Notes under the pieces: model-generated
What the model was told of the DNA's origin: nothing
Seen by the model: only the letters and a program-made list of their open reading frames with translations
The model's database searches: none
NCBI RefSeq assembly: GCF_024502345.1
Contig: NZ_JALDNN010000001.1
Direction: 5' to 3' (one strand)
DNA length: 64,000 nucleotides
DNA from: Escherichia coli
GTDB taxonomy: Bacteria; Pseudomonadota; Gammaproteobacteria; Enterobacterales; Enterobacteriaceae
Shown here: piece by piece, positions 6,405 through 64,000 of the stretch
Layout of the letters: every line of letters begins with the position of its first letter
Position numbering within the stretch: position 1 is the stretch's first letter
Position numbers and translations under genes: made by a program

Positions 6405-6476
6405 ACAGAATTCCCCCTCAGGCAAGTGAGTTCTGCGCTTTACTGCCTGTGGTTCACATTCAAAAGGAACCTGTAA

Positions 6477-8228: not shown

Positions 8229-8444
8229 GAGACGTTCTCCGTGAAAGTTAACTGACTGAAAATGATGTGATTACTTTAAAGAGGGGGTCGGACAGGGTAT
8301 GGACACCACAGAAACTATTTTTCATTTCTGCAAAAGCCAGAGGCAGCGGGGGTTACAGGCCTTCCCTCGGTGAGTGAGGACCGTCAGCACGGTGCGATGC
8401 GGACAGGTGGTGTCCGATATTAACAAAGCAGCAACATTAAACGG

Positions 8445-9266: not shown

Positions 9267-9357
9267 AAGCAGACTCCTCATAATGGGAAAACAAATAAAA
9301 GAAATCCCCGTCGCATCGGCGACAGGGTTAGGGAAATAACAGGGATGGGTTAAATAC

Positions 9358-10221: not shown

Positions 10222-10327
10222 TACTACTCCTCTGAAAAATAATACAAAAACGGCAGAATCGTGAGATTCCACCGTTAATCTGGTATGTTCAAAGGGATGA
10301 TATATATCTGAAAATTATTAACTTGAT

Positions 10328-13024: not shown

Positions 13025-13636
13025 ATGCTTAATGATATTTATCTTGACCAACGTCATGCCCCATTCAATACAACGTATTTGCAACGGATGCTGGGTGTAA
13101 TTGATAACGCTATAGCACAACACCCAAGGACAATGGCTGTCCGTGTCGATCTACGTCTGCCTGATGACAACTGTAATAGGAATAGTGGTCTGATATCCCG
13201 TTTCATTGAATCGCTTAATGCAAAAATCGATGCTCGGTACCGAAATAAAATAAAGAATGGCATCAGGAGCTACCCATGCCAGTTGCGTTACGCCTGGGTT
13301 CGGGAAGTGGGAGAAATAAACGAGAAGTCCCATTACCACATGGTACTTTTCGTGAACAAAGACACATTCAATGGACTTGGGAGCTATGGAGAAGGGGGAA
13401 CGGGATTAGCCAGCCTGATACGTGAAGCCTGGCTGAGCGCTTTGCAACTAGGCCCTTACCCCGAATACCGAACGTTGGTCCACATCCCGGACAACCCATT
13501 GTATTACCTGGACGTCAATAATTTAGACTACAAAACGGTTTACGATAAACTCACTTTCAGGCTGAGTTATTTTGCGAAAGAGCGCACCAAGTCATACAGC
13601 CGAGATGAACGCTCGTTTGGCTGCAGTCAGTCCTGA
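13025..13636 (+). CDS. YagK/YfjJ-family (inovirus Gp2-like) island protein
   Basis: 203 aa starting MLNDIYLDQRHAPFNTTYLQRM...; family typical of CP4-type islands (recalled similarity). Confidence 0.6.
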   Translation: MLNDIYLDQRHAPFNTTYLQRMLGVIDNAIAQHPRTMAVRVDLRLPDDNCNRNSGLISRFIESLNAKIDARYRNKIKNGIRSYPCQLRYAWVREVGEINEKSHYHMVLFVNKDTFNGLGSYGEGGTGLASLIREAWLSALQLGPYPEYRTLVHIPDNPLYYLDVNNLDYKTVYDKLTFRLSYFAKERTKSYSRDERSFGCSQS

Positions 13637-14170: not shown

Positions 14171-15133
14171 TCGGCCATGTTTATTATGGCGATCAGCGCC
14201 TGGTATTTACTGCGCGGACGGGAGCGCGATGTCGCATTACGCTCGTTTGCCATCGGTTCCGTCTTCGGTACTCTGGCGATTATTGGCACGCTGCAACTCG
14301 GAGACAGTTCTGCGTATGAAGTCGCGCAAGTACAACCGGTAAAACTGGCGGCGATGGAAGGGGAGTGGCAAACGGAACCTGCACCTGCACCGTTCCATGT
14401 GGTTGCCTGGCCGGAACAGGATCAAGAGCGTAACGCCTTTGCCATCAAAATTCCCGCGCTGCTAGGGATCCTCGCCACTCACTCATTAGATAAACCCGTG
14501 CCGGGTCTGAAGAATTTGATGGCTGAAACCTACCCACGCTTGCAACGCGGACGTATGGCCTGGCTGTTAATGCAGGAAATATCGCAAGGCAATCGTGAGC
14601 CGCATGTGTTGCAGGCATTCCGGGAACTGGAAGGTGACCTGGGCTACGGCATGTTGCTCTCCCGCTATGCGCCGGATATGAATCATGTCACAGCCGCACA
14701 GTACCAGGCGGCGATGCGTGGTGCAATACCTCAGGTTGCGCCGGTATTCTGGAGTTTCCGCATCATGGTGGGCTGTGGTTCCCTGCTGCTACTGGTGATG
14801 CTGATTGCGCTTGTCCAGACGCTGCGTGGCAAAATCGACCAGCATCGCTGGGTGCTGAAAATGGCGCTCTGGAGTTTGCCGTTGCCGTGGATTGCGATTG
14901 AAGCCGGGTGGTTTATGACCGAGTTTGGTCGTCAGCCGTGGGCGATACAGGACATCTTACCGACATACTCCGCGCACTCCGCCTTAACCACAGGACAACT
15001 GGCTTTCTCACTGATCATGATCGTAGGGCTTTACACCCTGTTCTTAATCGCCGAAGTCTACCTGATGCAGAAATATGCCCGTCTGGGGCCGAGCGCGATG
15101 CAGAGTGAACAACCGACGCAGCAACAGGGGTAA
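14170..15133 (+). pseudogene. appC: cytochrome bd-II ubiquinol oxidase subunit I, 5'-truncated (C-terminal ~320 codons only)
   Basis: Protein from ...AMFIMAISAWYLLRGRER to ...SEQPTQQQG matches the C-terminal part of AppC; upstream sequence is island DNA. Confidence 0.85.
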
Positions 15134-15144: not shown

Positions 15145-16281
15145 ATGTTTGATTATGAAACATTGCGCTTCATCTGGTGGCTGCTGATTGGCGTGATCCT
15201 GGTGGTCTTTATGATCTCCGACGGATTTGACATGGGGATCGGCTGTTTGCTGCCGCTGGTGGCGCGTAATGATGATGAACGCCGGATAGTGATTAATAGC
15301 GTTGGTGCGCACTGGGAAGGCAATCAGGTCTGGTTGATCCTCGCAGGTGGGGCATTATTTGCCGCCTGGCCCAGAGTGTATGCAGCGGCGTTTTCCGGCT
15401 TTTATGTGGCGATGATCCTGGTGCTGTGCTCGCTGTTCTTCCGCCCGCTGGCCTTTGATTATCGCGGAAAAATCGCCGATGCACGCTGGCGTAAAATGTG
15501 GGATGCCGGTCTGGTCATCGGCAGTCTGGTGCCGCCGGTAGTCTTCGGTATCGCCTTCGGCAACTTGTTGCTCGGCGTGCCGTTTGCCTTCACACCGCAA
15601 TTACGCGTGGAGTATCTCGGCAGCTTCTGGCAACTGCTGACGCCATTCCCTTTATTGTGCGGATTGCTCAGCCTTGGGATGGTGATTTTGCAAGGTGGCG
15701 TCTGGTTACAACTGAAAACTGTTGGTGTGATTCATCTGCGTTCACAGCTGGCGACTAAACGCGCTGCACTGTTGGTGATGCTGTGCTTTTTGCTGGCGGG
15801 TTACTGGCTGTGGGTCGGTATTGATGGCTTTGTACTGCTCGCCCAGGATGCTAACGGTCCTTCCAATCCGTTAATGAAACTGGTGGCAGTGCTACCTGGT
15901 GCCTGGATGAATAATTTTGTCGAGTCGCCCGTTTTGTGGATCTTCCCGCTACTGGGGTTCTTCTGCCCATTGCTGACGGTGATGGCGATTTATCGTGGTC
16001 GCCCGGGTTGGGGATTTTTGATGGCATCATTGATGCAATTTGGCGTGATTTTCACGGCAGGCATCACGCTGTTCCCCTTTGTCATGCCGTCAAGCGTGAG
16101 TCCAATCTCCAGCCTGACGTTGTGGGACAGCACTTCCAGTCAGCTGACGCTGAGTATTATGTTGGTAATCGTGCTGATATTTTTGCCCATTGTGTTGCTC
16201 TACACTCTCTGGAGCTACTACAAAATGTGGGGGCGCATGACGACAGAAACTCTCCGCCGTAACGAAAACGAGCTGTACTAA
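15145..16281 (+). CDS. appB: cytochrome bd-II ubiquinol oxidase subunit II
   Basis: 378 aa, [21 protein letters not shown]...; SD AAGGAG upstream. Confidence 0.9.
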
Positions 16282-46581: not shown

Positions 46582-47067
46582 CAGGATGAGGTGCACACTC
46601 TGGTATGGGTGTCACCTGCCAGAAAAAGCATTGACCTTCGAGCGTATTTCGCCGATAAACAGGGATCCGCCTCATGAGCGGGTCTGAATGCTAACGTTTC
46701 TCTACATCCTTCCCGGTGCCTTTGCCGGGTTTTTTACATCTGTAGTCTCGTTTTCTGGAAAATATTCGTTTCCCTGCCATAATCATAGCAGGCAGCCATT
46801 TGCCGGGCGGCATCGGGTATGCCGTCAGATACCTGAAATTCCTGATAGTGTAGTTTTACGGGCGGCTCCGCCCGTTTTTTTTGTCTTCCCGGAAGGGGGC
46901 ATTTAAAGTGGTGCTATGCATAATACGCAGGTTCGCTAACACCTGTGCAGGTGTTGTTATTAACCATAAGGCCTCTACGCGCACCGCTCAGAAGGCCTGA
47001 GAGCGTTTCAGCGGTACGCGTAGAGGCCTTATGGTAAATAGCCTATGCTAATGTCCGCTAAGAGCTG

Positions 47068-47336
47068 TGAGTTCAACTGATGGACGCAACACACTTATTG
47101 AACCGTTCTGCGGGTGATTCATAGTCTAGGCTTTTTCTCGGCCTTTCGTTGAGCTGTCTGGCAACACTGTTAAGTCTTTGCTGGCTGTGAACCGATAAGT
47201 CAGTTCCTTTTGAAAATACTGCCTGAGCAATCTGTTTGTATTTTCATTGGAGCCGCGTTGCCAGGGGGATTGAGGATGGCAGAAGTAAACCTGAATATCT
47301 GTGGCTACAGTAAACTGTTGTGGTCAACTAAAACTG
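47068..47336 (-). mobile_element. remnant of a diverged IS30-family element (terminal repeat plus transposase 3' part)
   Basis: About 70% nucleotide similarity to the 3' region and terminus of the intact IS30 at 47650..48871; interrupted at ~47337. Confidence 0.45.
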
Positions 47337-47649
47337 GCCACCTGAACAGAGGTGATATGCTCACCTCAGAACAACACAGGTGCCATAATGAAAAAAAGAA
47401 ATTTCAGCGCAGAGTTTAAACGCGAATCCGCTCAACTGGTCGTTGACCAGAATTACACCGTGGCAGATGCAGCCAGCGCTATGGATGTCGGCCTTTCCAC
47501 AATGACGCGATGGGTGAAACAATTACGTGATGAGCGGCAGGGAAAAACACCAAAAGCCTCCCCCATTACCCCGGAACAAATTGAAATCCGTGAGCTCAGG
47601 AAAAAGCTACAACGTATTGAAATGGAAAATGAAATATTAAAAAAGGCTA
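47337..47649 (+). mobile_element. IS911-like (IS3 family) 5' fragment with partial orfA
   Basis: Left-end-like sequence GGCCACCTGAACAGAGGTGATATGCTCACC and orfA N-terminus [43 protein letters not shown]; cut at 47649 by IS30. Confidence 0.65.
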
Positions 47650-49517
<1,868 letters not shown>

Positions 49518-49616
49518 TATTACTGTCGCCTGTAAATAACCGGCACAGTGCGAACACCATGCCGGGAGATTATGGCTGACAAAACGGGAACGACAGGATC
49601 CCGCTGTTGTCGGGGG

Positions 49617-50013
49617 TCAGAAGGTTTCCCAGTTCTCGCTGGCGTGTTGTTCCGTTTCACGAACGGACTTTACCGCTTTAACCTTACTCTGCGGGCTGGT
49701 GTTGCTGATTGTCGGTACTATGGTATTTTTTCGTTCAGCATCGCGTTTTTTATTATCACGGAGACGAAATACGCTCACCTTCTCCTGCAGAATCCGTGAC
49801 TGATTCTGCAACGAAGCGGCAGTGGCTGCAGACTGTTCCACCAGAGCTGCATTTTGTTGGGTGGTGCTGTCTATCTGGCCCACGGCGCTGTTAATCTGGG
49901 CAATACCATCTCCCTGCTCACGACTGGCCTTGGCTATTTCGTCAATCAGCCCTTCCATGCTCTGGACGTTACTGATGATATCCTCCATTCCCCTGTCTGC
50001 TTTTTCAACCAGG
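49617..50013 (-). pseudogene. methyl-accepting chemotaxis protein, 3' fragment truncated by IS1
   Basis: Encodes the MCP signalling-domain C-terminus ending in the CheR-docking pentapeptide NWETF; upstream part replaced by IS1. Confidence 0.7.
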
Positions 50014-50689
50014 GTACTGACGGGGTGGTGCGTAACGGCAAAAGCACTGCCGGACATCAGCGCTATCTCTGCTCTCACTGCCGTAAAACATGGCAACTGC
50101 AGTTCACTTACACCGCTTCTCAACCCGGTACGCACCAGAAAATCATTGATATGGCCATGAATGGCGTTGGATGCCGGGCAACCGCCCGCATTATGGGCGT
50201 TGGCCTCAACACGATTTTCCGCCATTTAAAAAACTCAGGCCGCAGTCGGTAACCTCGCGCATACAGCCGGGCAGTGACGTCATCGTCTGCGCGGAAATGG
50301 ACGAACAGTGGGGATACGTCGGGGCTAAATCGCGCCAGCGCTGGCTGTTTTACGCGTATGACAGGCTCCGGAAGACGGTTGTTGCGCACGTCTTCGGTGA
50401 ACGCACTCTGGCCACACTGGAGCGTCTTCTGAGCCTGCTGTCGGCCTTTGAGGTCGTGGTATGGATGACGGATGGCTGGCCGCTGTATGAATCACGCCTG
50501 AAGGGAAAGCTGCACGTTATCAGCAAGCGTTACACTCAGCGCATTGAGCGACATAATCTGAATCTGAGACAATATCTGGCAAGGCTGGGACGGAAGTCAC
50601 TGTCGTTCTCAAAATCGGTGGAGCTGCATGACAAGGTCATCGGGCATTATCTGAACATAAAACACTATCAGTAAGTTGGAGTCATTACC
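50014..50689 (+). mobile_element. IS1, 5'-truncated copy (lacks left inverted repeat and start of insA)
   Basis: Match to IS1 begins inside insA (TACTGACGGGGTGGTGCGTAACGG) and continues to the right end ...GAGTCATTACC at 50689. Confidence 0.85.
50171..50674 (+). CDS. insB: IS1 InsB
   Basis: 167 aa, a few substitutions relative to the 27476..27979 copy. Confidence 0.85.
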
Positions 50690-50781: not shown

Positions 50782-52044
50782 CTATTTTAATGGATTGTTA
50801 ATCTTTGCATATTCAAACGGACTGATACCCTTCTCCCGGTTCGCATCCAGAAAATCGGCCCACCATTGCAACATCAGTCGCCGTTCTTCCAGATGTTCTG
50901 CTTTATGGATATACGCAGCACGTACACCATTACGCTCCTGATGGCTCATCTGACGTTCCACAGCATCGCGGGACCACAAACCTGATTCAATCAATGCACT
51001 GCACGCCATCGCCCGGAATCCATGGCCACAGACTTCCTGGGTTGTGTCATACCCCATCACCCTCAGGGCTTTATTTACAGTATTTTCACTGATTGGTTTA
51101 CGCGGGTCATGTGCACCCGTAAATATCAGACCATTTTCACCTGCCCATGTCTGAAGTTCTGTCAGTATGGCTACAGCCTGTTTGCTGAGTGGCACAAGAT
51201 GTGGTGTTCGCATCTTGGAGCCCCGGTGTGAGAATTTTACGCCGGGCAGAGGTTCGCGTTCGGCTGGAATAGTCCACATGGCATTGTCAATATCAATTTC
51301 AGACCACCGGGCGTATCTGAGTTCACTGGAACGAATAAAAACCAGTAAATTCAGCGTAACGGCAAGCTGGGTGACAGGTTGCCCCTTGTAACTGCTAATA
51401 CGCGACAAAAGTTCAGGCAGGCGAGAAAGATCAAGAGCGGGGCGATGCTGGCGTTTTACAGTGGTCAATGCGCCAGCCATATCCAGAGCAGGATTATATC
51501 TGATGATGCCAGACTGTACGGCATAACGCATTACAGCAGATATTCTTTGCTGCAGACGACTGGCGATTTCATAAATTTGTTTAGCTTCTGCGGCACGAAC
51601 AGGGATAAGCAGGTCCGGGGTACGGAGTGTTGTGATATCCCGGTTGCCGATAAAGGGGAAAACGTGTGTCTCGAGGCTTTTGAGTACTTTATCGCTGTGT
51701 GATTGTGCCCATTGTTTATTACTGGCATGCCAGCGTCGTGCAATATGTTCAAAAGAGAGTTGTAAATCAGGGACTACTTTTTTAGCTCTTTTTTGTTCGC
51801 AAGGGTCAACCCCCTCCGAAATCAGTTTTCGGGCCTCATCCCGTTTTGTACGAGCTTCGGAGAGAGAAACTTCCGGATACACACCAAGTGCCAGGGTTTT
51901 CTCCTTACCCAGAATACGATAACGGAGACGCCAGTAACGGGAACCATTAGGATGAACCAGCAGGAACATGCCGGCCCCGTCAGTGAGTTTATAAGCCTTG
52001 TCAGTGGGCTTTGCAGCCCGGATTTTTGCGTCAGTCAGTGCCAT
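50782..52044 (-). CDS. P4-type tyrosine integrase (tRNA-associated genomic island integrase)
   Basis: 420 aa, MALTDAKIRAAKPTDKAYKLTDGAGMFLLV... N-terminal arm-binding domain and catalytic R..HGFR..Y core; adjacent to a tRNA-Phe 3' fragment. Confidence 0.85.
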   Translation of the reverse strand: MALTDAKIRAAKPTDKAYKLTDGAGMFLLVHPNGSRYWRLRYRILGKEKTLALGVYPEVSLSEARTKRDEARKLISEGVDPCEQKRAKKVVPDLQLSFEHIARRWHASNKQWAQSHSDKVLKSLETHVFPFIGNRDITTLRTPDLLIPVRAAEAKQIYEIASRLQQRISAVMRYAVQSGIIRYNPALDMAGALTTVKRQHRPALDLSRLPELLSRISSYKGQPVTQLAVTLNLLVFIRSSELRYARWSEIDIDNAMWTIPAEREPLPGVKFSHRGSKMRTPHLVPLSKQAVAILTELQTWAGENGLIFTGAHDPRKPISENTVNKALRVMGYDTTQEVCGHGFRAMACSALIESGLWSRDAVERQMSHQERNGVRAAYIHKAEHLEERRLMLQWWADFLDANREKGISPFEYAKINNPLK

Positions 52045-52241
52045 AGTTCAGCCTTCTGAATGCGTTAAAGAGGGTACAAATTCTGTCGAACTGGGGTATA
52101 CCCGCAATTATACCCACACAATGGGGTTGATGTGGGGGGAATCTGGTTGAGTTCGGTAGAATTGATTTGGAGGCAGAACGCTTAAATTGTGGCGTTCTGA
52201 AACGAAAAACGGACCTCCGTGGAGGTCCGTTGATATGAATT

Positions 52242-52290
52242 TGGTGCCCGGACTCGGAATCGAACCAAGGACACGGGGATTTTCAATCCC
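52242..52290 (-). repeat. 3'-terminal 49 nt of tRNA-Phe (island attachment-site repeat), not a complete tRNA gene
   Basis: Minus strand reads GGGATTGAAAATCCCCGTGTCCTTGGTTCGATTCCGAGTCCGGGCACCA, matching the anticodon-loop-to-CCA part of recalled E. coli tRNA-Phe; match stops abruptly at 52290. Confidence 0.75.
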
Positions 52291-52567
52291 TTTAAAAGAG
52301 CCCAAACGATCCATCAGCACTAACAGTTTTTTACTGGTTTACCTTGAGAAAAATGTTTAAGTTTGGTTCTTCATGACTTAAGTATTGCTTAAATACGGCG
52401 TTTCGAAGCTACCAGAATCCTACCATTATGAGCCTATGCCCATAGAAGAGAAATTATCTCCCGTTCTCGCGATTCAATGACTAAAAATCAGACGGTGCAG
52501 GCTTTTAGATACTGATATTATATCTTTTGGGTAAAGTATTAATCTCTGTTGAGATAGGCTCTTAGCC

Positions 52568-52906
52568 CTAAAATAGCCGAGCAGCAAACGCCAAAACAAC
52601 AATACTGACATTACCATTAACTGTCGCGATAGTTCTGAGTCGGTCGTCTTTCAGGGTTTTACCGTCAAATGTTGCGATGGTGCGGAGTCGATCGTCTTTC
52701 AGGGTCTTTCCATCAAAGGTAGCGATGGTGCGGAGTCGGTCGTCTTTCAGGGTTTTACCGTCAAAAGTTGCGATGGTTCTGAGCCGGTCGTCTTTCAGGG
52801 TTTTACCGTCAAACGTTGCGATGGTCCTGAGTCGATCATCTTTCAAGGTCTTGCCATCAAAGGTCGCGATAGTCCTGAGTCGATCGTCTTTTATAGTTAC
52901 GCTCAT
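52568..52906 (-). CDS. tandem-repeat protein: five identical 16-aa units (KDDRLRTIATFDGKTL) plus a degenerate sixth
   Basis: 48-bp DNA units differ from each other only at synonymous positions; AGGAGA SD before the second ATG; about 215 bp downstream of hsdR on the same strand. Confidence 0.6.
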   Translation of the reverse strand: MSVTIKDDRLRTIATFDGKTLKDDRLRTIATFDGKTLKDDRLRTIATFDGKTLKDDRLRTIATFDGKTLKDDRLRTIATFDGKTLKDDRLRTIATVNGNVSIVVLAFAARLF

Positions 52907-53127
52907 AAGCATTCTCCTGTGATACGTCCGTTCAGCACTTTACCATCCAAAATAAAGCACTGGTTTCTGTAAGTTCTGGGCGCTAATCATTTGAATATGC
53001 GTTTAAAATCCATCCAGTTAGCATTAACATTAACCAGCGCTTCATCGATCATAACAGGTCTGATGCAGGTTAAAAGATACAATCTTACCTATAAATTGCG
53101 GTAGCGCATTGCTCTGTTATCTGGCAT

Positions 53128-56100
53128 CTAGAGGTGCCCTCCAACCCCTTTAAATTTTTCGATAAACGCCCCAATTTTCTGGAATACGGTCTGCTTTTTC
53201 GTTTTGTACTGAGGATTCAGCGGACTGAGCTTTGGTAGCGTCTCATTTAGCTCAGTGCCATTTTCGGTAGCATACTCCCGTTTGAGTGATGTGCGGATAT
53301 AGCGCCTTGCAGCCTCTTCATTGAGGTTTTCTTCCTTAATCAACGCCTCTGCTTCCCGTTGCTGTTCACGCTGAGCATAGGTAAAGAATGCATCAATGAT
53401 ACTGGCCTTGTCCGGCATGTCATCAAGGTTAGTTTGCTGAATAAAGTCAACAATCAGACCTTCTTTGGCACGGTTGCCCAGACTTGAGCGGATTAAGCGT
53501 CTGACCTCTTCAGTCAGGGCTTCTTTACCTTTTTTCTCTCTGTTGTGGTCGAAAATCAGGCCAAGGATGTAATCCAGGTTAATTTCCTGCGACTTCAGCA
53601 GGTCAATTTCAAACACCACGTCATCCCAGTCTGTGGTTGATTTATCCCTGTCGTTTGATGCTTTTTCGCGTCGCTGCCAGTCCCGGATATCATTGTATGC
53701 TGAGCGATAGTCCTGAACTTTACGTTCTGCCGGGAGACGAATGGTTTGTAATTCAGCAAATTTTTCATCATCCACATAGTGCTCTGCTTTAAAGGTTTCT
53801 ACCGCTTCCGGGTCACTAATATCAACCTTCTGCAGGGCTTTCAGCGTGGCAAATTCATCATAGTTTTGCAGGATGTTTTCTGCCCGCAGATATTCACCAA
53901 ACAGTTTGACGAAGGCTTTTTTCTCTTTTTCACTGTCGATACTGGCAGGGTCAGGGAAGCGCTGCTCCAGCTCCGAAACAACAGCCATAAAACCTCGTTT
54001 AGCCTCACCGGTTGCCGCATCGGTAAAGCCCTGCATGTACTCTTCGTAGCTTTTTTCCAGCACCACATTCTTGGTGTTTTTGTCGCCAAAAAGTGTGATG
54101 GCATCAATGGTCGGACGCTCCAGGTCCCTGAAAGTCACGATATTGCCGAAGGTTTTGGTTGCATCATAGATACGGTTGGTGCGTGAGAATGCCTGCATCA
54201 GACCGTGATAACGCAGGTTTTTGTCAACGAACAGAGTATTGAGCGTCGGGGCATCAAAGCCGGTTAAGAACATTCCCACCACGATGAGAAGGTCGATATC
54301 CTGATTTTTCACTCGTTGAGCTAAATCGCGGTAGTAGTTCTGGAAGCCGTTACTGTCGGTACTGAAATTGGTTTTAAAGTGGTTGTTATAGTCATCAATG
54401 GCTGAATCCAGGAATTCCTTTGCGCTGCTGTTCATTGCGCTGGTATCAAAGCTTTCGTCAGTAATATCACCAATGGCGCTTTGCTCTTCATTAGCAGCAA
54501 AAGAGAAGATGGTTGCCACACGAAGACGTTTATAGCTGCCAGATTTCTTCTCAGCTTCTTCCTGTAGCATTTTAAATGTCGTGTAATAAGCTTTTGCCGC
54601 GTCCACGCTGCTCACTGCTAACATGGCATTGAAGCCTTTTGCTCCCGGGAAGGTACGATGCGTTTTCTGGCGGAAGTTATTGAGAATGTATTGCGTTATT
54701 TCCTGGATACGCAGTGGGTGCAGAAAGGCCTGCTGGTTTTCAGCCGCGCTGAGTTTTTTCTCGTCTGTTTCCGTTTCAAGGGACTTAAACTGTGGGCGGA
54801 CATCGTTATAGTCCACCTTAAACTTCAGCACTTTTTCATCACGAATCGCATCAGTAATTACGTAAGAATGTAATTCACGCCCGAAGACGCTGGCGGTGGT
54901 TTCTGCCCCCAGTGCATTTTCCGGGAAAATAGGCGTACCGGTAAAACCAAACTGATAAAAGCGTCTGAATTTCTTTTTGAGGTTTTTCTGGGCCTCACCA
55001 AACTGGCTGCGGTGACACTCATCAAAGATAAACACCACCTGCTGCTGATAGACGGGCAGGTCAGCTTCGGCTTTCATCAGGTTATTGAGTTTCTGAATGG
55101 TTGTGACGATAATTTTGTTATCGTCCTTATCCAGGTTTCTTCTGAGGCCAGCTGTATTATCCGAACCATTCACACTGTCCGGAGAGAAGCGCTGATACTC
55201 CTTCATGGTCTGGTAATCGAGGTCTTTCCTGTCGACCACGAAGAAGACTTTATCAATAAAGTCCAGCTCGGTTGCCAGTCGTGCGGCCTTAAAACTGGTC
55301 AGGGTTTTTCCTGACCCTGTGGTATGCCAGATAAACCCGCCGCTTTCGGGTTTTGACCAGTTCTTCGCTTTAAAAGAGCTGTTGATTTTCCAGAGAATGC
55401 GCTCAGTGGCCGCTATCTGATAGGGACGCATGACCAGCAGTGTCTGGCTGCTGTCAAACACGCTGTAATTAAACAGAACATTCAGCAGGGTATGCTTCTG
55501 GAAGAAAGTGGCGGTAAAGTCCTTCAGGTCCTTTATCAGGGTGTTATCCGATTTCGCCCAGTTCATGGTGAAATCAAAGCTGTTTTTATCCCGCTTAGTG
55601 GTACTGGCAAAGTACCGGGTATCAGTCCCGTTGGAAATCACGAAGAGTTGCAGGTATTTAAACAGGGAGTTATCGCTGTTAAAGCTTTCCTTGCTGTAAC
55701 GGTGTATCTGGTTAAAGGCTTCACGAATCGCCACGCCGCGCTTTTTGAGTTCGATTTGCACCAGTGGCAGGCCGTTGACCAGAATGGTGACGTCATAACG
55801 GTTAGCGTGTGAGCCGGTCTGCTCAAACTGCTGAATGACCTGCACCTTATTGCGCAGCAGGTTCTTTTTATCTATCAGATAGATGTTTTCCAGACGACCA
55901 TCATCAAACGTAAAATCACAGATATAGTCGATATGGATTTTACGGGTTTTGTCCAGGCTGCTGTCACTGGGGCTGTCCAGATACTGCTCTGCGAAGCGCC
56001 GCCATTCACTTTCGTTAAACTCCACACCATTAAGACGCTGAAGCTGGTCCCGCACATTCGCCAGCATCGCAGTCGGTGACTTAACGGAGATAAACTCATA

Positions 56101-56244
56101 CCCCTGATTAAGAAGGTCCTGAATCAGCTCCCGCTCAAGGTCCAATTCGCTCTGGTAGCTGTCACCGGTATCCATAACTTTTGTGTATTTATCAAGGACG
56201 ATAAAGTTATTGGATTCAGCAATGGTGTGTGTCTGTTGTGTCAT
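53128..56244 (-). CDS. hsdR: Type I restriction enzyme R subunit (Type IC, EcoR124-like)
   Basis: 1038 aa; Walker A GSGKT, DEAH-box [10 protein letters not shown]-terminus [20 protein letters not shown] resembles recalled EcoR124I HsdR. Confidence 0.9.
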
Positions 56245-56307
56245 GGAGCATCCTGTGCGTCATCTGGCAAAGTCCGGAAGGGTATCAGAAGCATCTTCCG
56301 GCATTCA

Positions 56308-56352
56308 TAAAACCTGATACCGGACGGGTGAGAACAAACCCTGCCGGTATCA
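56308..56352 (-). terminator. stem-loop in the hsdS-hsdR intergenic region (possible hsdMS terminator or regulatory structure)
   Basis: 8-bp inverted repeat GATACCGG...CCGGTATC followed by a T-rich run on the minus strand. Confidence 0.35.
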
Positions 56353-56360
56353 ATGGTCCG

Positions 56361-57569
56361 TCAGTTGCTAGTTGTTTCGTGCTTCGGGAAGCTGAACAAC
56401 AAGTCGCGATAGTACTCGTACTGCTTCTGGCGTAGTTCTATTTCACGGGGTAAGCCTTCGGTGATAGAGCTTGTTAATGTGTCGAATTTATCGAGTATGG
56501 TGACAATCCTAACTTGCTCTGACTTTGAAGGGATTGGTAGTAAAAGGTCCTCCATTTGTTTTTTGGATACGGCAGGAATACCTCCTTTCTGCTGAATACC
56601 CGTTAATTTGGTCTCGGATTGTTTCAGATAGTAATAGACATACATCCAATGCAACTGTTCAGTGCTTCTAACAGAGATGGAATAGCAACTATTGCCTGCC
56701 CAGTAAGGAGTGGAACTCTTATTTACAAATCCTGCATTTGCTCCACGCGCACTCACAATAATCTTATCGCCATCATTGTTGAAGTCTTCGTAGTAACCTG
56801 TAGGAGTCCGCCCTCCGTTGTAGACCGGATAATCTGCGTCAGGATTCTGCTTGTCCTTACGGACAAACGCACCAATTGTAATTATTGCTACTTCCCCCAG
56901 ACTCTTCCACTCAACACTCCCCCCCTCAAAACTCAGCAATTGGTTACGATAGTAATTGTACTGCTTTTTACGCATGGTAAGCTCAGCTGTAAGCTCAGCT
57001 GTAAGAGCAGTAAATTTATCCAGAATTCGGACGATTTCAGACTGGATGGTCAGAGACTTTTCAGGATTTTCCGGGCAAGGAATGGGGGCTTTATATGCTG
57101 AAATCATTTGAAGATTCAGCCCACCACGCCCGCTGTTCCCAGATGATATCTGACGTAGATTATCATACTGGGTTTCCAAAAAGTGGAAAATATAATCTGA
57201 ATTGATCTTCCGCTCATCAAATGTAATGGCTGCAAGTGATTGATTGGTGGTTAATTTAATGCGGGTTCTTGCTACTTTACCACGAGTTTTACCCTGACCT
57301 GCTAATGCCATAACAATGGAATTTTCAGGAACAAATTTAGCACTTGAGTTATTTAATCCATCCTCAGTAATGAATGTCTCAGTTTCTTTGATGGTTTTTA
57401 AATTTACTTCACCTGAACTCATCCAGGGGATAGTTCCATGCTCCCAATATTCTGTTTTTTTAGTATCAGGGGTGCCACCAGAATAAATTTTTTTTGCAAC
57501 CTTACCGAGAGGGAACCACTCAACCTCAATCCCCTCCAGCAGTTTTTCCAGATAATTTAGCTTACTCAT
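56361..57569 (-). CDS. hsdS: Type I R-M specificity subunit (Type IC), two TAEL repeats in the central conserved region
   Basis: 402 aa; conserved central ...[27 protein letters not shown]... and C-terminal ...[37 protein letters not shown]; 4-bp overlap with hsdM. Confidence 0.85.
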
Positions 57570-59122
57570 GCCTGCGCCTCGTAGCCTTCAATTTCTGCCA
57601 CAATCGCATCAATGTCTTTGCGTAACTGGTCGATTTTGCTGACCGTGGTTTTAAGCTCAACATTCAGTTCGGTGATATCGACGATTTCACGGGTATCTTT
57701 TGCTTCGACGTAGCTACTGACAGACAGATTGTAGTCATTACCAGCAACAGTCTCTAATGGCACCGTTTTCGCCAGATGGTCAGTATCTGCCTTACTGTTG
57801 AACACATCCATAATCTGCTTAATATGACCATCAGTCAGGATATTGTTATTGGTTTCTTTCTTAAACAACCCGCTGGCGTCAATAAACTGAACGCGGGTAT
57901 CTGTTTTGTGCTTGGACAACACTAGTATGTTAACGGCAATGGTGGTGCCGAAGAACAGATTTGGTGCCAGAGAAATCACCGTTTCAACATAGTTGTTGTC
58001 GACCAGGTACTGGCGGATTTTCTGCTCTGCTCCGCCACGGTAGAAAATACCGGGGAAGCAAACTATTGCTGCACGCCCTTTAGCTGACAGGTAGTTTAGT
58101 GCATGTAGCACAAACGCAAAGTCAGCTTTTGATTTCGGGGCCAGTACGCCAGCAGGAGCAAAGCGCTCATCGTTAATCAGGGTCGGATCATCACTACCAA
58201 TCCACTTAACCGAGTACGGTGGGTTAGAAACAATCGCATCGAACGGTTTTTCATCGCCAAAGTGAGGCTCAGTCAGGGTATTCCCCAACCTGATATCAAA
58301 CTTATCGTAGTTGATGTTGTGCAGGAACATATTCATACGCGCCAGGTTAAACGTCGTATGATTTATCTCTTGTCCGAAAAAACCTTCTTCAATGATATGA
58401 TTATCAAAGTGCTTCTTCGCCTGAAGCAGCAGTGAGCCAGAGCCTGCGGCAGGGTCATAGATTTTGTTGACGTGAGTCTGACCATGCATCGCAAGCTGAG
58501 CAATCAGCTTAGAGACGTGCTGTGGTGTGAAGAACTCCCCGCCAGACTTACCGGCATTCGCCGCATAGTTTGAAATCAGGAACTCGTAGGCATCACCGAA
58601 AAGGTCAATCTGGTGCTCATTAAAATCCCCGAGCTTTAGCCCCTCAACGCCTTTCAGAACGGCAGCGAGGCGGCTGTTTTTGTCTTTGACGGTGTTACCC
58701 AGTCGATTGCTGGTCGTATCGAAATCGGCAAACAGACCTTTGATGTCGGCCTCAGACGGATAGCCGTAGGCAGAGCTTTCAATAGCGACGAAGATACTGT
58801 TTAAATCAGCATTCAGCCTGTCGTTGGTGTTCGCTTTAGCGGCAACGTTGCAGAACAGCTGGCTCGGATAGATGAAATAGCCTTTAGTCCTGATGGCATC
58901 ATCTTTGATGTCATCGGTAATGATGCTGTCATCAAGTGCTGCATAATGTATGCTCTCATCCCCTGCTTCCATGTAGCTGGAAAAATTCTCACTGATGAAG
59001 CGGTAGAAAAGGGCACCGAGTACATACTGTTTAAAATCCCATCCATCTACTGAGCCCCTGACATCATTGGCAATGGCCCAGATTTGACGGTGTAGTTCTG
59101 CACGTTGTTGAAGACTGGTCAT
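57566..59122 (-). CDS. hsdM: Type I R-M N6-adenine DNA methyltransferase subunit
   Basis: 518 aa; catalytic NPPY motif (SNPPYS) and AdoMet-binding region [10 protein letters not shown]. Confidence 0.9.
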
Positions 59123-59710: not shown

Positions 59711-60031
59711 ATGAAACAGCTATTGGATTTTATAATTGGAAGTTGTGTGGATAACAGAACCAAATTTCAGTTGCTTGCAGTTTGTTATCCAAAATGTAAG
59801 GATGATGAAGTGATGTTGATTTTGCGCTGGAGGGTAGCTGATTTGTATGCGCATGAACTGGAAGTTCAGAATTATCTTTTTAGAGAGCTGGAAGGTATCA
59901 TAGAGAAAATCACGGGCCTGCCTGAAACCTATTTTGTATCAAGCTATAAATCACTATTGACCGATGATTTTAGAGAACTCACAGCAGCGGGGGTTGATGT
60001 TTGTAAGTTTATTATGGAAAACAAAGGTTAG
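59711..60031 (+). CDS. hypothetical small protein (106 aa) in the variable slot between hsdM and the WYL module
   Basis: AT-rich ORF with AAGG SD 8 nt upstream; divergent from hsdM; occupies the position held by the GmrSD-like gene in the left-hand locus. Confidence 0.4.
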   Translation: MKQLLDFIIGSCVDNRTKFQLLAVCYPKCKDDEVMLILRWRVADLYAHELEVQNYLFRELEGIIEKITGLPETYFVSSYKSLLTDDFRELTAAGVDVCKFIMENKG

Positions 60032-60146: not shown

Positions 60147-60482
60147 TTATACTGCTGTTATGCATCTAAAAAGCTGACGGCTTTGTTTATGTTTTATGTT
60201 CGGATAGATTCTCATCGCAGCTGCACAGAGAGGTGAAACCTGCCTTGCTATATTTTTACCAAAGTTAACAAGAAGACCATGCTTGATCTTTTCACTATTC
60301 GTTCTGACTTTGATGACAAAGCTGAACTGATATACGATTACCTCAATGAGGTCATTGCCAAATGTTATACTGGCAGCGTTGTTTATTTCATGTTCATAAT
60401 TCCTCAGGTCAGTGTTAAGTCTTGCTGTTGCATCTACAAGTGCGTATTCTTTATCGATAATCATAACTTTCTCACTTATCAT
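60147..60482 (-). CDS. hypothetical protein (111 aa), paralog of 2787..3116
   Basis: Last gene of the module operon; conservative substitutions versus its paralog. Confidence 0.45.
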   Translation of the reverse strand: MISEKVMIIDKEYALVDATARLNTDLRNYEHEINNAASITFGNDLIEVIVYQFSFVIKVRTNSEKIKHGLLVNFGKNIARQVSPLCAAAMRIYPNIKHKQSRQLFRCITAV

Positions 60483-60522: not shown

Positions 60523-61236
60523 TTAATTGCGATTATTCGGTTGTTTTGCCCCGTAATGCATTATCTGATGAATAATGTTCATGTGGGGTAAGGCTTCCAT
60601 AAAGTCAGACTGTTCAATCAGCGAAATGAGTGTGTTATCGATCTCAAACGTTGTATCCGGTAATACCTCAACCAGCCTGATTCGGGACAGGGAAATAACG
60701 AACACGCCCGATGACGTACATCCGGCAAGAAACCACTCCGCATGGCTGCAAAGCAGACGGTAGGGATGAACGGTATGGCTGACGTTTTCGTCGGTTCTGA
60801 TACGCACCTGGGTCTGGTTAAGTATGGCGAGCGTCAGTCTGCTGAAATCACCGAAAAGGGTGGGTTTCTGGCGCGGCTCCGGTAGCATAATCCTGTATGG
60901 CGAGGGACGTTCCCCGTCAAGCATCAGGCTCAGTAGTTTGGCATCCATCGCGGGTAACAGACGGTCAAGATGCAGCAACCTCGCCAGTATCTTCATATCC
61001 CGTTCCGTGCGGCGACGAAAGTAATGTGAGGCAAGCTGATACACGCCGTTGCTCTGTTCAATATCAAGGTAGGTCAGACGGACGTTGAAATCCCGTCGCA
61101 GCGTTCGCGTCGTCACTCCAAATTCTTCTGCCAGCGTCCCGATATGCAGCTTTTCACCCTGAAACAAACGGCTCAGGATGATGGAAAGGCGGGTTGCCAG
61201 TCTGTCATGTTCGTTTTCTTGTGTTATCAGCGTCAT
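60523..61236 (-). CDS. HTH-WYL domain transcriptional regulator (paralog of 3157..3870)
   Basis: 237 aa; same motifs as the left-hand copy. Confidence 0.6.
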   Translation of the reverse strand: MTLITQENEHDRLATRLSIILSRLFQGEKLHIGTLAEEFGVTTRTLRRDFNVRLTYLDIEQSNGVYQLASHYFRRRTERDMKILARLLHLDRLLPAMDAKLLSLMLDGERPSPYRIMLPEPRQKPTLFGDFSRLTLAILNQTQVRIRTDENVSHTVHPYRLLCSHAEWFLAGCTSSGVFVISLSRIRLVEVLPDTTFEIDNTLISLIEQSDFMEALPHMNIIHQIMHYGAKQPNNRN

Positions 61237-61338
61237 ACATCATTTCCGAATTTAGCCGGGAAATGATGCCAGCAGTAGCGGACAGGATTTGTCCGCCCTC
61301 TGAAGTTTTTTAAAGTCTGAATACCTTAAATGTAAGTG

Positions 61339-62088
61339 CTAAACGTCAGTATTCTCAGGTGAATAAAGATGCTTCTGGCGCATGTAGGCAATAAAAATGC
61401 AGGATGGTAGCGTCACCCGGTATGCGGGACCGGCTAAATCAATCAGCAGCCAGAGAGAACTGAGCACCCAGCCCACGGGACCGGCAAAAGCGCCCATGGT
61501 ACGCGTCAGCATGGCATTTCCTGCAACGGTCAGCCCTCTGCCTAACAGGGCTTTCGCCACACCATTTGTGACAACAAGTGCCATCTGATAGGCCGCAAAC
61601 CCGGATGTTTTAATCCCCGCCTGGATTGCCATGGTCAGCAGCTCCGGCGTGGGATTGCTGTAGCCTGTCTGCAATTCTTCCGCCACGGTCTTTAGCTGAG
61701 CGGGTGTCATCTTCTCAAGGCTTTTCTCCAGGATCTTCATCAGCAGATTCATTTCAATGGTTTCAACACTGGATTTGCTGTTGTAGTTCACCTTCATTTT
61801 ATCGCAGGCATCGGTAAGAATTTCCCGGTACAGCACCCCTTTACCCCAGCGGAGCAGCGTGGCAAAGCTGTTCGCCCCAAACGTCTGAACTTCGGCGGCA
61901 ATGGCATCCCAGTAGCGCGGGTGGTTGGGCTTGTGTTTTTTATACTGAGGATCATAGGTCAGCGTTTCCGTGATGCGTGCCAGTCCGTCTTTCGGATCGC
62001 AGATAAGCACAGAAACCAGTAAATCCAGATCGTCACGATGACAGTGGCGCAGAAACTCAAGGTCGGGGTCGTGTCGGTAGGTAGCCAT
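61339..62088 (-). CDS. hypothetical protein (249 aa) with Gly/Ala-rich hydrophobic C-terminal segment
   Basis: GAGGTGA SD; C-terminus ...GVAKALLGRGLTVAGNAMLTRTMGAFAGPVGWVLSSLWLLIDLAGPAY looks membrane-associated; first gene of the module. Confidence 0.55.
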   Translation of the reverse strand: MATYRHDPDLEFLRHCHRDDLDLLVSVLICDPKDGLARITETLTYDPQYKKHKPNHPRYWDAIAAEVQTFGANSFATLLRWGKGVLYREILTDACDKMKVNYNSKSSVETIEMNLLMKILEKSLEKMTPAQLKTVAEELQTGYSNPTPELLTMAIQAGIKTSGFAAYQMALVVTNGVAKALLGRGLTVAGNAMLTRTMGAFAGPVGWVLSSLWLLIDLAGPAYRVTLPSCIFIAYMRQKHLYSPENTDV

Positions 62089-62231
62089 ATTTCACCTCAT
62101 TGCAGATATTGGACCTGACAGTTTAAGGAAGCACCCGGACAGGGTTTGTCCGCCTGAAAAACAAAAAAGTAAAAAAAAACCTACCCGAAAGCAGGTTTCT
62201 GTTCACCGGATGGAGGTATAACGCGTCGGGA

Positions 62232-62618
62232 TTACTTTCCGCGCCATTCCTTTTCCACTTTATCCGCAAAGGCATCGCACTGCCGGGCATATTCCGGGTT
62301 ATACAGAAGCTCCGACTGCGAAAGCTGCATGGCGGTCATGCTGCCGTTACGGGCGTTCGATTCGAGCCAGGTTCTGCCATAGGTTTGGTTCATCACCTGA
62401 AGTACCCTGTTGAATACCGGTCCGTTGAAGCGGGCATTGAGATTAACGCCTTTTACCTGAAGGCCGCTGTCACTGGTCTGGGTCAGGCGGGTGGAGTACA
62501 TCGCGCAGAAGGTCGAATTGGTAATCATCTGAGCGTCAGCCTGCTCGTCGGCGAACGCGCTGTGGCTGAAGGCGGAAAGCAGAATTGCGGCGGTTAACAG
62601 TTTTAAAGTTTTCATCAT
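62232..62618 (-). CDS. secreted small protein (128 aa) with cleavable signal peptide
   Basis: MMKTLKLLTAAILLSAFSHSAFA then ADEQ...: typical Sec signal peptide with AxA cleavage site. Confidence 0.55.
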   Translation of the reverse strand: MMKTLKLLTAAILLSAFSHSAFADEQADAQMITNSTFCAMYSTRLTQTSDSGLQVKGVNLNARFNGPVFNRVLQVMNQTYGRTWLESNARNGSMTAMQLSQSELLYNPEYARQCDAFADKVEKEWRGK

Positions 62619-62692
62619 GTTCCCTTATGGATTGAAAAGCGGAGACAGCCTGCCATACGGGGTGGTCAGGAGATGTCCGGCAGAGAAAAAAG

Positions 62693-62932
62693 TCAGGGTT
62701 TCAGCGAGGGAGCCAGTCGCCAGCGGTGAGGGCCAGCGGATTCCAGCACAAAGGCCAGTTGAGCGAGGTCCCGTCTTGCTGTGCGGGGAGAGACGTCAAA
62801 CTGCCGGATGATGTAGCGAACAGATATTGTCTGACCGTAAAACAGGGCCATGGTCAGCCGGATAAGCCGTTCTCCCTGTCCGGTGACACGTTGCCTGCAA
62901 CGGCTGGCTTTCATCGTTGCCATACGCGCCAT
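62693..62932 (-). CDS. short HTH protein (79 aa) resembling the N-terminal domain of the YfjR-like regulators
   Basis: GERLIRLTMALFYGQTISVRYIIRQFDVSPRTARRDLAQL parallels the HTH of 7578..8228; no WYL-like segment follows. Confidence 0.35.
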   Translation of the reverse strand: MARMATMKASRCRQRVTGQGERLIRLTMALFYGQTISVRYIIRQFDVSPRTARRDLAQLAFVLESAGPHRWRLAPSLKP

Positions 62933-63375
62933 CGGTCCCCTTTCTGAAAAGAATCGAGGTGTCTGGCAAGCCAGATATCAGGGCACGAATCGCCGGTAAC
63001 GCAGCGGGCAGTAAACCGGTGGCAGTTAAAGTCGAGCAGGCTATAAGGATAGCGCTGACCCACTGCCGCCTTTGCCCGTTCAGCGGCCTGTGCACAACCC
63101 TGAGGCGTCAAATCCATACAGTCGGTATACACCGAGATAGCGGAGTTCCAGCCATCGAGCCGGTCAAGAAACCCTTTGGCCTTACTTTTGATAACGGTTC
63201 CATCGCCATCAAGATGAACAATATCGCCGTTACCCACATAGATACCGCTGTGTGCGGCAAGGCCAAAAAGCAGTTCGCACTGCACGATACCACCGTAAGC
63301 CGGTTCATCGACGCAGGAGAGAATGCAGTTATCGATAAATGAATCCACGAAGTTCAGCAGCAGAAGCCGGTACAT
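62911..63375 (-). CDS. LRAT-like (permuted NlpC/P60 papain-fold) protein
   Basis: Start placed at MYRLLLLNF (AAGGAA SD); His motif AHSGIYVGNGDIVHL precedes Cys motif FNCHRF, the LRAT-type order. Confidence 0.5.
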   Translation of the reverse strand: MYRLLLLNFVDSFIDNCILSCVDEPAYGGIVQCELLFGLAAHSGIYVGNGDIVHLDGDGTVIKSKAKGFLDRLDGWNSAISVYTDCMDLTPQGCAQAAERAKAAVGQRYPYSLLDFNCHRFTARCVTGDSCPDIWLARHLDSFQKGDRWRVWQR

Positions 63376-63433
63376 AACATTCAGTTCCTTACTACGGGGG
63401 AGAGGGGGGATGCGGGGGAAACGTTGTGAACAC

Positions 63434-63862
63434 TCAGCTTTGCCACAACGTACGGACCGTGAAAACCCCCATATCGTGGTAAGCCATAAAGTTACTTTCC
63501 CACAGCGACCAGAACTCACGGGCGTCGACATGAGAGATATCGCCACAACGGGAAAGCCACGTGTATTGTTGCGTCCAGCTCACATCGACATCTTTTTCAA
63601 GCTCAGGCCATGGATGCCCTGCATAGTGAAAATCGGTGACGTAATCGAGCTGCCAGTCTTCTCCGGCAGGGATGAGGCGTATTTCGACCGGATGCCAGCC
63701 GCCCTTTTCCGGTGAGTATTCAGGGTCACGAAAGTTAATGGTTAATCCGGTGATGGGGTGACGATGAGGCGGTTTTTGCGCGAGGATATCCAGAAGCAGT
63801 TGGGTGAACGACCGGGAGAGCGGCAGCACATAGCCGCCCTGCAATATTACGGGTGATGACAT
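63434..63862 (-). CDS. hypothetical protein (142 aa) immediately upstream of the LRAT-like gene
   Basis: ORF MSSPVILQGGYVLPLSRSFTQLLLDILAQKPPHRHPITGL...; Trp-rich; no motif recognised. Confidence 0.45.
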   Translation of the reverse strand: MSSPVILQGGYVLPLSRSFTQLLLDILAQKPPHRHPITGLTINFRDPEYSPEKGGWHPVEIRLIPAGEDWQLDYVTDFHYAGHPWPELEKDVDVSWTQQYTWLSRCGDISHVDAREFWSLWESNFMAYHDMGVFTVRTLWQS

Positions 63863-64000
63863 AGTGAATTTCCTGATTTTTGGTTAACAGAACACAGAAA
63901 AAGCGGGGTTAGTCCTGGCTGAGCGTAGCAAGCTGCGTCATACGATGCTGCCAGTCGGCATAGCAGCGGTGCATAAAGAGTCTGCTGCTGTCCGCTTCGA

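Follow-up and report, generated by a model that had tools for sequence, protein, structure and literature searches.

A predicted LRAT/PLAAT-like enzyme in the core gene array of a pipolin-like island of Escherichia coli

Enzymes of the PLAAT and LRAT families are well studied in animals and picornaviruses. To our knowledge, no role has been assigned to their bacterial relatives within the LRAT clade. Here, we analysed a gene encoding such a relative in a 64,000-nt stretch of an Escherichia coli contig (hereafter called the window), where it belongs to a group of four genes located on the minus strand at positions 62232-63862. The permuted NlpC/P60 clade is regarded as lipid-directed and two proteins, Tox-Act1 and TseH, have been demonstrated to be phospholipases and are membrane-damaging toxins of type VI secretion systems (PMC12994826). 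Pipolins, a second point of comparison, have a published core that includes an IntSXT integrase, DUF2787 and WYL-domain proteins and orphan genes (PMC11551731). A third one is the Juk anti-jumbo-phage system, whose sensor is JukA (bioRxiv 10.1101/2022.09.17.508391). The explanation that we favour for the four genes, with moderate confidence, is that they are part of the core operon of a pipolin-like island, the LRAT-like protein being a probable lipid-acyl enzyme, perhaps with an accessory role in conflicts.

The interval runs exactly from the stop codon of a gene encoding a signal-peptide protein to the start codon of a gene encoding a 142-amino-acid protein. In the order of transcription, the four genes encode a DUF2787 protein (63434-63862; 142 amino acids), an LRAT/PLAAT-like permuted NlpC/P60 enzyme (62911-63375; 154 amino acids; predicted catalytic residues His42, His54 and Cys118), a short DeoR-type helix-turn-helix (HTH) protein (62693-62932; 79 amino acids, or 73 from the ATGA overlap with the preceding gene) and a Sec-signal protein of 128 amino acids with two conserved cysteines that belongs to an orphan family (62232-62618; hereafter SEC128). 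A previous sequence-only reading had reported these four co-directional genes, and they are all present on the same strand at these positions. The 142-amino-acid protein is tryptophan-rich as that reading had noted, with 8 tryptophans counted among its 142 residues. The same reading gave this protein and the signal-peptide protein as the two neighbors of the LRAT-like protein; the former is indeed encoded next to it whereas the gene of the latter is located one gene farther, beyond the HTH gene. Coordinates of the LRAT-like gene count from its ATG codon (465 nt), a call that is made identically by PGAP in E. coli genomes; the mechanical open reading frame, which has a GTG start, is longer. Plausible ribosome-binding sites precede all four genes, and pairwise comparisons with orthologues gave ratios of nonsynonymous to synonymous substitution rates of 0.06-0.42 (0.10-0.19 for SEC128), indicating purifying selection. 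Therefore, the four genes can be considered as real. PGAP already assigns family names to three of them. The block formed by the DUF2787, LRAT-like and HTH genes is found in 116 of the 5426 complete E. coli genomes and is chromosomal in every case.

The LRAT-like protein matches the LRAT profile of Pfam (i-E = 3e-9, residues 29-130), and the profile of its subfamily matches HRASLS2 (E = 4.3e-7) and PLAAT3 (E about 2e-6) among PDB sequences. Its HSGIY motif (residues 42-46, including His42) is N-terminal to its NCHRF motif (residues 117-121, including Cys118), i.e. in circularly permuted order, and HMMER aligns these motifs with HWAIYVG and NCEHF of HRASLS2/PLAAT3. In 68 homologues that display 32-95% identity, no variation is seen at His42, Asn117, Cys118, His119 and several glycines, and conservation of His54 reaches at least 90%; conservation of the motifs is also seen in seven close homologues. 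The spacing between His42 and His54 is 12 residues, as in PLAAT3. Furthermore, the predicted fold matches those of PLAAT4, YiiX, Aichivirus 2A and TseH and not that of canonical NlpC/P60 proteins. From its sequence and its structure model, the protein is assigned to the permuted NlpC/P60 enzymes of the LRAT/PLAAT clade, with His42-His54-Cys118 as predicted triad. The LRAT-like call and the permuted order proposed by the sequence-only reading are thus supported by the Pfam match and by the homologues: loss of the His/Cys motifs was looked for and they are instead kept down to 32% identity.

Members of the PLAAT/HRASLS and LRAT families (PF04970) are the best sequence and structure matches of this protein. 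They share with it the permuted papain-like fold, the H-box (HxGIY), the NC motif (NCxxF) and the His-His-Cys triad with its two histidines 12 residues apart. However, the window protein is bacterial, is borne by a mobile genetic element and displays only about 24% identity with them. It also differs by an N-terminal hydrophobic helix, a conserved C-terminal WRVW strand and three additional conserved cysteines (Cys33, Cys86 and Cys125). The C-terminal transmembrane anchor that is typical of LRAT and PLAAT1-5 is not present, as its C-terminus (SCPDIWLARHLDSFQKGDRWRVWQR) is polar and the last elements of the structure model are a helix and a beta strand. A signal peptide is absent as well. Many homologues of the protein are extended, either at the N-terminus by Gly/Ala-rich hydrophobic stretches or at the C-terminus by coiled coils.

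Judging from the family to which it belongs, a lipid-directed clade of permuted NlpC/P60 proteins, the LRAT-like protein would be active as a thiol enzyme with a Cys-His-His triad and, apparently, as a lipid-acyl enzyme. It would work on inner-membrane phospholipids from the cytoplasmic face through a thioester on Cys118. Action from this face is expected since there is no signal peptide and since the N-terminal helix is hydrophobic where homologues have Gly/Ala-rich membrane segments. By analogy with PLAAT proteins, Tox-Act1 and TseH, the reaction could be that of a phospholipase A and/or an acyl transfer. Tox-Act1 and TseH are nevertheless secreted toxins with a periplasmic site of action and a cognate immunity gene, whereas the LRAT-like protein has neither secretion-system context nor signal peptide nor obligate partner. 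A role as type VI secretion effector was considered and rejected, the secretion-system context being absent.

Both tyrosine integrases, the orphan gene h117 and most of the orphan gene h143 lie just outside the window, and the order of the core was read from other genomes. In E. coli MRY15-117 and AW1.7, this order is IntB (plus strand), DUF927 and IntA (both on the minus strand), h117, h143, DUF2787, LRAT, HTH, SEC128 and JukA, followed by WYL, h111, DUF262 and a type I restriction-modification system. The AW1.7 island, whose flanks were recovered, lies beside tRNA-Phe, and its flanking by cutA/dsbD/dicD-like genes is the same in Tatumella. For the DUF927 protein, similarity was found to Cch1, the replicative helicase of SCCmec (E = 1.6e-22), and also to a primase/helicase family of PHROG. 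In the window, only the 3' end of h143 is present (63909-64000, minus strand), the gene extending past the window end; its translation matches the C-terminus of the 143-amino-acid orphan encoded at 14661-15092 of locus L001, which matches phrog_28971 (E = 3.5e-41). All related islands, as well as true pipolins, have a homologue of h143 at this position. Lineages carrying the array were found by a genome scan and tblastn, the scan being seeded with an alignment of 12 LRAT sequences as the 68-sequence alignment was too diverse; the Tatumella and L007-type assemblies were found by exact-sequence look-up. The same array is found with an LRAT-like protein displaying 93-99% identity in Buttiauxella, Pseudocitrobacter, Enterobacter and Kluyvera, 64% in Citrobacter and 53-54% in Limnobaculum and Cedecea. 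The Tatumella protein is 59% identical and those of L007-type assemblies about 53%. In L007-type islands, a GRAM-domain protein and a 261-amino-acid protein replace SEC128 and JukA, and in L061-type E. coli islands other small open reading frames take their place.

Two true pipolins, from E. coli (L014, tRNA-Leu) and Vibrio proteolyticus (L060), carry integrase, h117-like, h143-like, DUF2787 and piPolB genes, and the LRAT-like gene is absent from both. Homologues of the integrase, orphan, DUF2787 and WYL genes are found in the same order as in L014, with 28-53% identity to this pipolin. The elements share the integrase (46% identity for IntB), two orphans (37% and 53%), DUF2787 (45%) and the short HTH protein (41%). 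They also share a small signal-peptide protein encoded behind a GGACA-N5-TGTCC site, a WYL regulator that has a site of this kind too, and a variable downstream defence cargo such as a type I restriction-modification system. However, searches for piPolB with E. coli and Vibrio queries (tblastn) gave hits only in L014 and L060, none in the window or in the LRAT-bearing loci, and the annotations of the E. coli loci (29-34 kb) do not include piPolB. This makes the element a pipolin-like island devoid of piPolB. It further differs from pipolins by its second integrase and DUF927/Cch-like helicase, by its location at tRNA-Phe instead of tRNA-Leu, and by the LRAT-like gene inserted between the DUF2787 and HTH genes. 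This LRAT-like gene is a facultative insertion. Our literature search found nothing connecting pipolins with DUF927.

In L014, the DUF2787 gene is followed by genes encoding an 88-amino-acid HTH protein and a 130-amino-acid secreted protein (SEC130). The former (15572-15838) is unannotated and lies in a 700-bp stretch between the DUF2787 and secreted-protein genes that seemed empty; its product is homologous to the short HTH protein. In the sequence of SEC128, a typical Sec signal and an AxA cleavage site are recognised at the N-terminus (MMKTLKLLTAAILLSAFSHSAFA/DE). Homologues of SEC128 that are 50-60% identical occupy the same slot in Citrobacter and in a second E. coli island type, and SEC128 has no match in Pfam, NCBIfam, PADLOC, PHROG or PDB. 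Homology of SEC128 with SEC130 was considered and rejected, as BLASTP and hhalign (probability 11%) detected nothing beyond the signal peptide; the two proteins are therefore treated as positional analogues. More generally, NCBIfam, PADLOC and PHROG searches with the LRAT-like protein, SEC128, h117 and h143 returned nothing informative, the PHROG matches being only families of unknown function. No Pfam match was obtained for SEC128, h143 or the c36 neighbor, and no PDB sequence match for SEC128, h117 or h143.

The sequence-only reading had suggested that the four genes form a single toxin/immunity or effector set. This view does not hold, since each of them can be missing and since they belong to a longer core array of pipolin type. 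The LRAT-like gene is kept and the DUF2787 gene is absent in Citrobacter and Tatumella (LRAT loci L002, L023 and L004). The Tatumella island is also devoid of HTH, SEC128, JukA and WYL genes; h117, h148 (an h143 homologue), the LRAT-like gene and, directly 3' of it, an h111-like gene remain. In L004 the LRAT-like gene occurs without HTH and SEC128 genes, and in many distant loci it occurs alone. Conversely, DUF2787, HTH and a secreted protein are found without it in true pipolins. The co-occurrence elsewhere that the sequence-only reading had called for was found for the DUF2787-LRAT pair, whose members lie side by side or close together in six diverged lineages, including four enterobacterial island types. 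Both genes are found in Thalassotalea (L040; LRAT 35% identical) and in a Pseudoalteromonas plasmid, in the order RadC-DUF2787-DUF2787-Int-LRAT. Moreover, a cluster reported in a Vibrio pangenome study (PMC12409351) groups LRAT, two DUF2787 genes, an integrase and RNase HI. DUF2787 may be a co-evolving yet dispensable partner of the LRAT-like protein.

These data bear on the possibility that the LRAT-like protein is a toxin neutralised by DUF2787, HTH or SEC128 in a toxin/antitoxin or toxin/immunity cassette that stabilises the island. The membrane damage caused by its relatives Tox-Act1 and TseH, the translational coupling of the LRAT-like and HTH genes, as in many toxin/antitoxin pairs, and the repeated co-occurrence of DUF2787 and LRAT would all fit with such a cassette. 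However, no partner is obligate: LRAT proteins with a full triad occur without DUF2787, HTH and SEC128 in Tatumella and in many distant contexts, and both HTH and DUF2787 persist in LRAT-less pipolins. Moreover, there is no linkage with a secretion system, the LRAT-like protein has no signal peptide, and the whole block is cleanly deleted in a second copy of the island core carried by the same genome. An obligate toxin/antitoxin pair was rejected because the partners are separable, and we consider the cassette in its broader sense very unlikely.

The array reads, on the minus strand, h117, h143, DUF2787, LRAT, short HTH, an operator-like site, SEC128 and a terminator, then a putative operator, jukA, another putative operator, WYL and h111; the start of the h117-HTH operon lies past the window end. 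Genes from h117 to HTH are tightly spaced or overlapping, with overlaps between h117 and h143 and between LRAT and HTH. The start of the HTH gene overlaps the stop codon of the LRAT-like gene (ATGA) here, in L003 (4 nt) and in L007 (1 nt), so that the overlap is kept in three lineages. Through translational coupling, the output of the LRAT-like gene would be dosage-tied to that of the short HTH gene. The short HTH protein matches the UlaR/DeoR HTH of NCBIfam (E = 1.5e-4) and the WYL-regulator HTH of PADLOC (E = 1.8e-6). It is locally similar to residues 24-50 of the WYL regulator and 33-39% identical to the N-termini of the WYL proteins of L002 and L061. Sequence comparison relates it to the N-terminal HTH of the island WYL regulator, making it an HTH-only relative of this regulator.

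Downstream of the four genes, and adjoining them, lies a gene encoding a JukA/YaaW (DUF3944) homologue (61339-62088, minus strand; PADLOC JukA, E = 1.5e-72), followed on the same strand by the gene of a 237-amino-acid HTH regulator with a WYL domain (60523-61236; PADLOC WYL, E = 4e-15; annotated by PGAP as an HTH/WYL protein) and by the backbone gene h111 (60147-60482), which encodes a 111-amino-acid orphan with 45-46% identical homologues in L004 and L002. A strong intrinsic-terminator-like hairpin (62175-62200, minus strand; 11-bp stem then a T-run) is located 3' of SEC128 and closes the unit before jukA. A palindrome, GGACA-N5-TGTCC, is found about 45-65 nt upstream of three genes: WYL (61280-61294, GGACAGGATTTGTCC, about 44 nt upstream of the ATG), jukA (62137-62151, GGACAGGGTTTGTCC, 48-62 nt upstream of the ATG) and SEC128 (62664-62678, as GGTCA-N5-TGTCC, with one mismatch). 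It is also found before the WYL gene of the second copy (3914-3928, identical to the site at 61280) and near a YfjR-like WYL gene (8401-8415). A further exact site, distant from both island copies, is located at 13128-13142.

The window contains six sites for this palindrome versus 1.7 +/- 1.2 expected, a number reached by none of 100 shuffles. Furthermore, the exact core GACA-N5-TGTC occurs 11 times in ten island regions versus 0.7 expected from mononucleotide shuffles, and all 11 sites are intergenic, upstream of WYL, of jukA or of the gene that follows HTH. The site at 62664 has an exact counterpart at the same place in pipolin L014, where L061 and L007 have core-exact sites, and the site at 62137 is kept at the same place in Citrobacter L023. 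The palindrome is probably the operator of the WYL/short-HTH regulators; the short HTH protein itself probably binds the GACA-N5-TGTC operators before the SEC128, jukA and WYL genes. We infer from these motifs a WYL/short-HTH regulon that spans the secreted-protein slot, jukA and WYL itself. Judging from its own operator-like site, the SEC128 gene groups with jukA and WYL and not with the LRAT-like gene.

The proximity of jukA raises the question of a Juk effector: JukA would recruit the LRAT-like protein in place of JukB to attack the membrane-bounded early-infection compartment of jumbo phages, with SEC128 and WYL as accessory proteins. As in JukAB loci, a strong JukA homologue with a WYL neighbor is encoded here just downstream of the four genes, two genes separating jukA from the LRAT-like gene. 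None of seven neighbors matches the JukB model, and the LRAT-like protein is predicted to be lipid-directed. Such an effector would also fit with the variable effectors, the JukA-patatin-like phospholipase fusions and the WYL proteins, the commonest neighbors, that were described for Juk systems (bioRxiv 10.1101/2022.09.17.508391). However, the LRAT-like gene occurs without jukA in the Tatumella, L007, L024, L025 and L061 island types, and here jukA is separated from the LRAT unit by a terminator-like hairpin and a distinct operator-like site. The four genes differ from a JukAB system by the lack of JukB, by their separate transcription unit(s) and by their occurrence elsewhere without JukA. 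In addition, the Escherichia JukA was reported to be sufficient alone (bioRxiv 10.1101/2022.09.17.508391). Altogether, we regard a Juk effector as quite improbable.

Beyond these islands, an exhaustive hidden Markov model search retrieved 1071 LRAT clusters (50% identity) at E < 1e-3 and 519 at E < 1e-10. A word-indexed homologue search had underestimated these numbers (25 LRAT and 21 DUF2787 clusters) and was corrected for LRAT by the exhaustive search. In Alishewanella and Arsukibacterium, LRAT homologues are located among CARF-family genes, and the neighbor of other distant homologues is a dynamin-like GTPase or a large SNF2-like helicase. LRAT genes from Cloacimonadota and Ignavibacteriales are found with genes encoding a WYL protein, an AAA ATPase, a 413-443-amino-acid protein, ZorA/ZorB-like proteins and a BnzA-like protein of 196-235 amino acids (L037, 2570-9479; L042, 4456-11290; L044, 513-7546; L011). 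This set may be an undescribed multi-gene system. The ZorAB-like, CARF, WYL and AAA neighbors, which are examples and not statistics, are suggestive of conflict systems.

Concerning the biological role of the island LRAT-like protein, the one that we rate likeliest, although tentatively, is an accessory conflict function, i.e. phage defence or exclusion through modification of membrane lipids, rather than a two-gene toxin/antitoxin system. Several data weigh against this role. No LRAT homologue was found in 50,697 GenBank phage records, and homologues are rare on plasmids (8 of 72,556) and viral contigs (six from IMG/VR). Some of them are found in housekeeping settings, with potABC in gut Alphaproteobacteria or in the guaB/guaA interval of Ursidibacter; the LRAT family is therefore not limited to conflict systems. 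The LRAT-like and DUF2787 proteins match none of the PADLOC v2 families at E-values up to 0.01, and neither does SEC128. Compared with MRY15-117, the decayed second copy of the island has undergone a 2.76-kb deletion that takes h143, DUF2787, LRAT, HTH, SEC128 and the 5' part of jukA. Since exactly this section was lost, it is dispensable for mere persistence. Lastly, the conservation of the array beside the integrase could equally point to a function in the life cycle of the element.

According to this last explanation, the module going from h117 to HTH would control or perform excision, replication by the Cch-like helicase once the island is excised, or horizontal transfer and hitch-hiking; for transfer, the role of the LRAT-like protein would be to modify the envelope or a required lipidated factor. 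We know of no established function for the pipolin core and of no established mode of movement, and this gap regarding transfer was counted in favor of a life-cycle module. The array lies beside the integrase and is 30-55% identical between Vibrio or Thalassotalea and E. coli while the downstream cargo is variable, and near-identical islands in five enterobacterial genera indicate recent transfer. In addition, the pipolin paper ranks these genes as core genes that are not exchanged (PMC11551731). However, the LRAT-like gene is facultative, and true pipolins devoid of it share the rest of the array. Furthermore, no relaxase, oriT, packaging or excisionase signature is found in these proteins, and integrase-mediated mobility is not known to involve lipid enzymes. 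A life-cycle module therefore appears rather unlikely to us, although it comes closest to the conflict function.

The conflict function could also be considered at the scale of the whole bacterial LRAT subfamily (about 520 clusters), which would then be an unrecognised class of cytoplasmic effectors directed against membrane lipids in conflicts between mobile elements. The LRAT-like protein would be co-regulated with JukA and the secreted protein through the WYL/short-HTH operator. Its substrates could be phospholipids at the site of phage entry, for instance those of the lipid-bounded early-infection vesicle of jumbo phages, which it would cut or re-acylate, and DUF2787 would be its lipid-handling or regulatory partner. 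This generalisation is speculative and, taken with all these details, we hold it to be improbable.

The 142-amino-acid protein matches Pfam DUF2787 (PF10980, E = 1.8e-32) and has the same fold as a solved member of this family, VC0508 (PDB 2W56/2V1L), which a profile match also retrieves. VC0508 differs from it by belonging to another island and displays 36% identity with it; according to the PDB title of 2W56, it is encoded by VSP-II of Vibrio cholerae. The pipolin paper likewise places VC0508 in VSP-II (PMC11551731). A literature search gave nothing connecting VSP-II with an acyltransferase and RadC. In this island, VC0508 presumably lies near RadC. DUF2787, with or without LRAT, could help an incoming element past host barriers, as an anti-defence or establishment factor, in the manner of genes found alongside RadC and anti-restriction genes on other mobile elements. 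Besides VC0508 in VSP-II, what speaks for it is that DUF2787 comes just behind RadC in L064, another E. coli element, and in the Pseudoalteromonas plasmid, where LRAT then follows. However, this support is contextual, no known anti-defence family was matched and the genes are here outside any conjugative leading region, so that we rank this explanation as the least probable of those considered.

The family annotations and the DUF2787/WYL/orphan core of pipolins were already known. The DUF927 variant devoid of piPolB, the inserted LRAT-like gene with the wider, uncharacterised subfamily to which it belongs, the coupled HTH-only relative of WYL and the operator motif are new. The locus indicates that the same core also serves islands that are devoid of piPolB and have a Cch-like helicase, and that it can take up a PLAAT-like enzyme. 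Moreover, the locus holds a conserved palindromic operator that links the short HTH, WYL and jukA genes with a slot for small secreted proteins. Should the conflict role be true, it would add to the recently discovered permuted NlpC/P60 toxins that target lipids.

The decayed second copy of the island core (2787-4589, minus strand: h111-like gene, WYL gene, and 3' jukA fragment fused to a 5' h117 fragment) lies in a region (1-7200) that contains an hsdM fragment, a DUF262 gene (848-2725), the h111-like gene (2787-3116), the WYL gene (3157-3870), the 3' fragment of jukA (3973-4266) fused to the 5' fragment of h117 (4269-4589), IntA (5082-6404) and a truncated DUF927 gene (6477-7172). By blastn, positions 1-4296 match L001 21634-17339 (96.2%) and positions 4295-4606 match L001 14582-14269 (89.5%). 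Directly adjoining the truncated DUF927 gene is a segment with a match to the DUF5983 region of L001. Beside this copy, a CP4-57/CP4-6-like remnant (7085-10272) encodes the YfjR-like WYL regulator (7578-8228), a DUF932 protein (8445-9383) and a YeeP-like GTPase (9358-10272).

Downstream of its core, the intact island carries a cargo (50782-59122) that includes the type I restriction-modification genes hsdM (57566-59122), hsdS (56361-57569) and hsdR (53128-56244) and a P4-type integrase gene (50782-52044). An open reading frame of 114 codons (52568-52912), whose product has no NCBIfam match, stands in place of the 5-fold beta-flower gene of L001. Compared with MRY15-117 and AW1.7, the DUF262 gene located between h111 and hsdM is missing; its place is taken by an AT-rich sequence (GC 0.35-0.37) with a plus-strand open reading frame for 106 amino acids (59711-60031). 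No tRNA gene was found anywhere in the 64-kb window, and the attachment site of this copy is therefore not visible. To the left of the island, an IS-rich junction (39289-50225) carries a gene for an OlsF-like bifunctional ornithine-lipid synthase (39289-41013; NCBIfam E = 1e-242, exceeding the curated cut-off), hemB, IS5, an AIDA-type autotransporter gene (43486-46536), IS30 and a fragment of a methyl-accepting chemotaxis protein gene (49617-50225).

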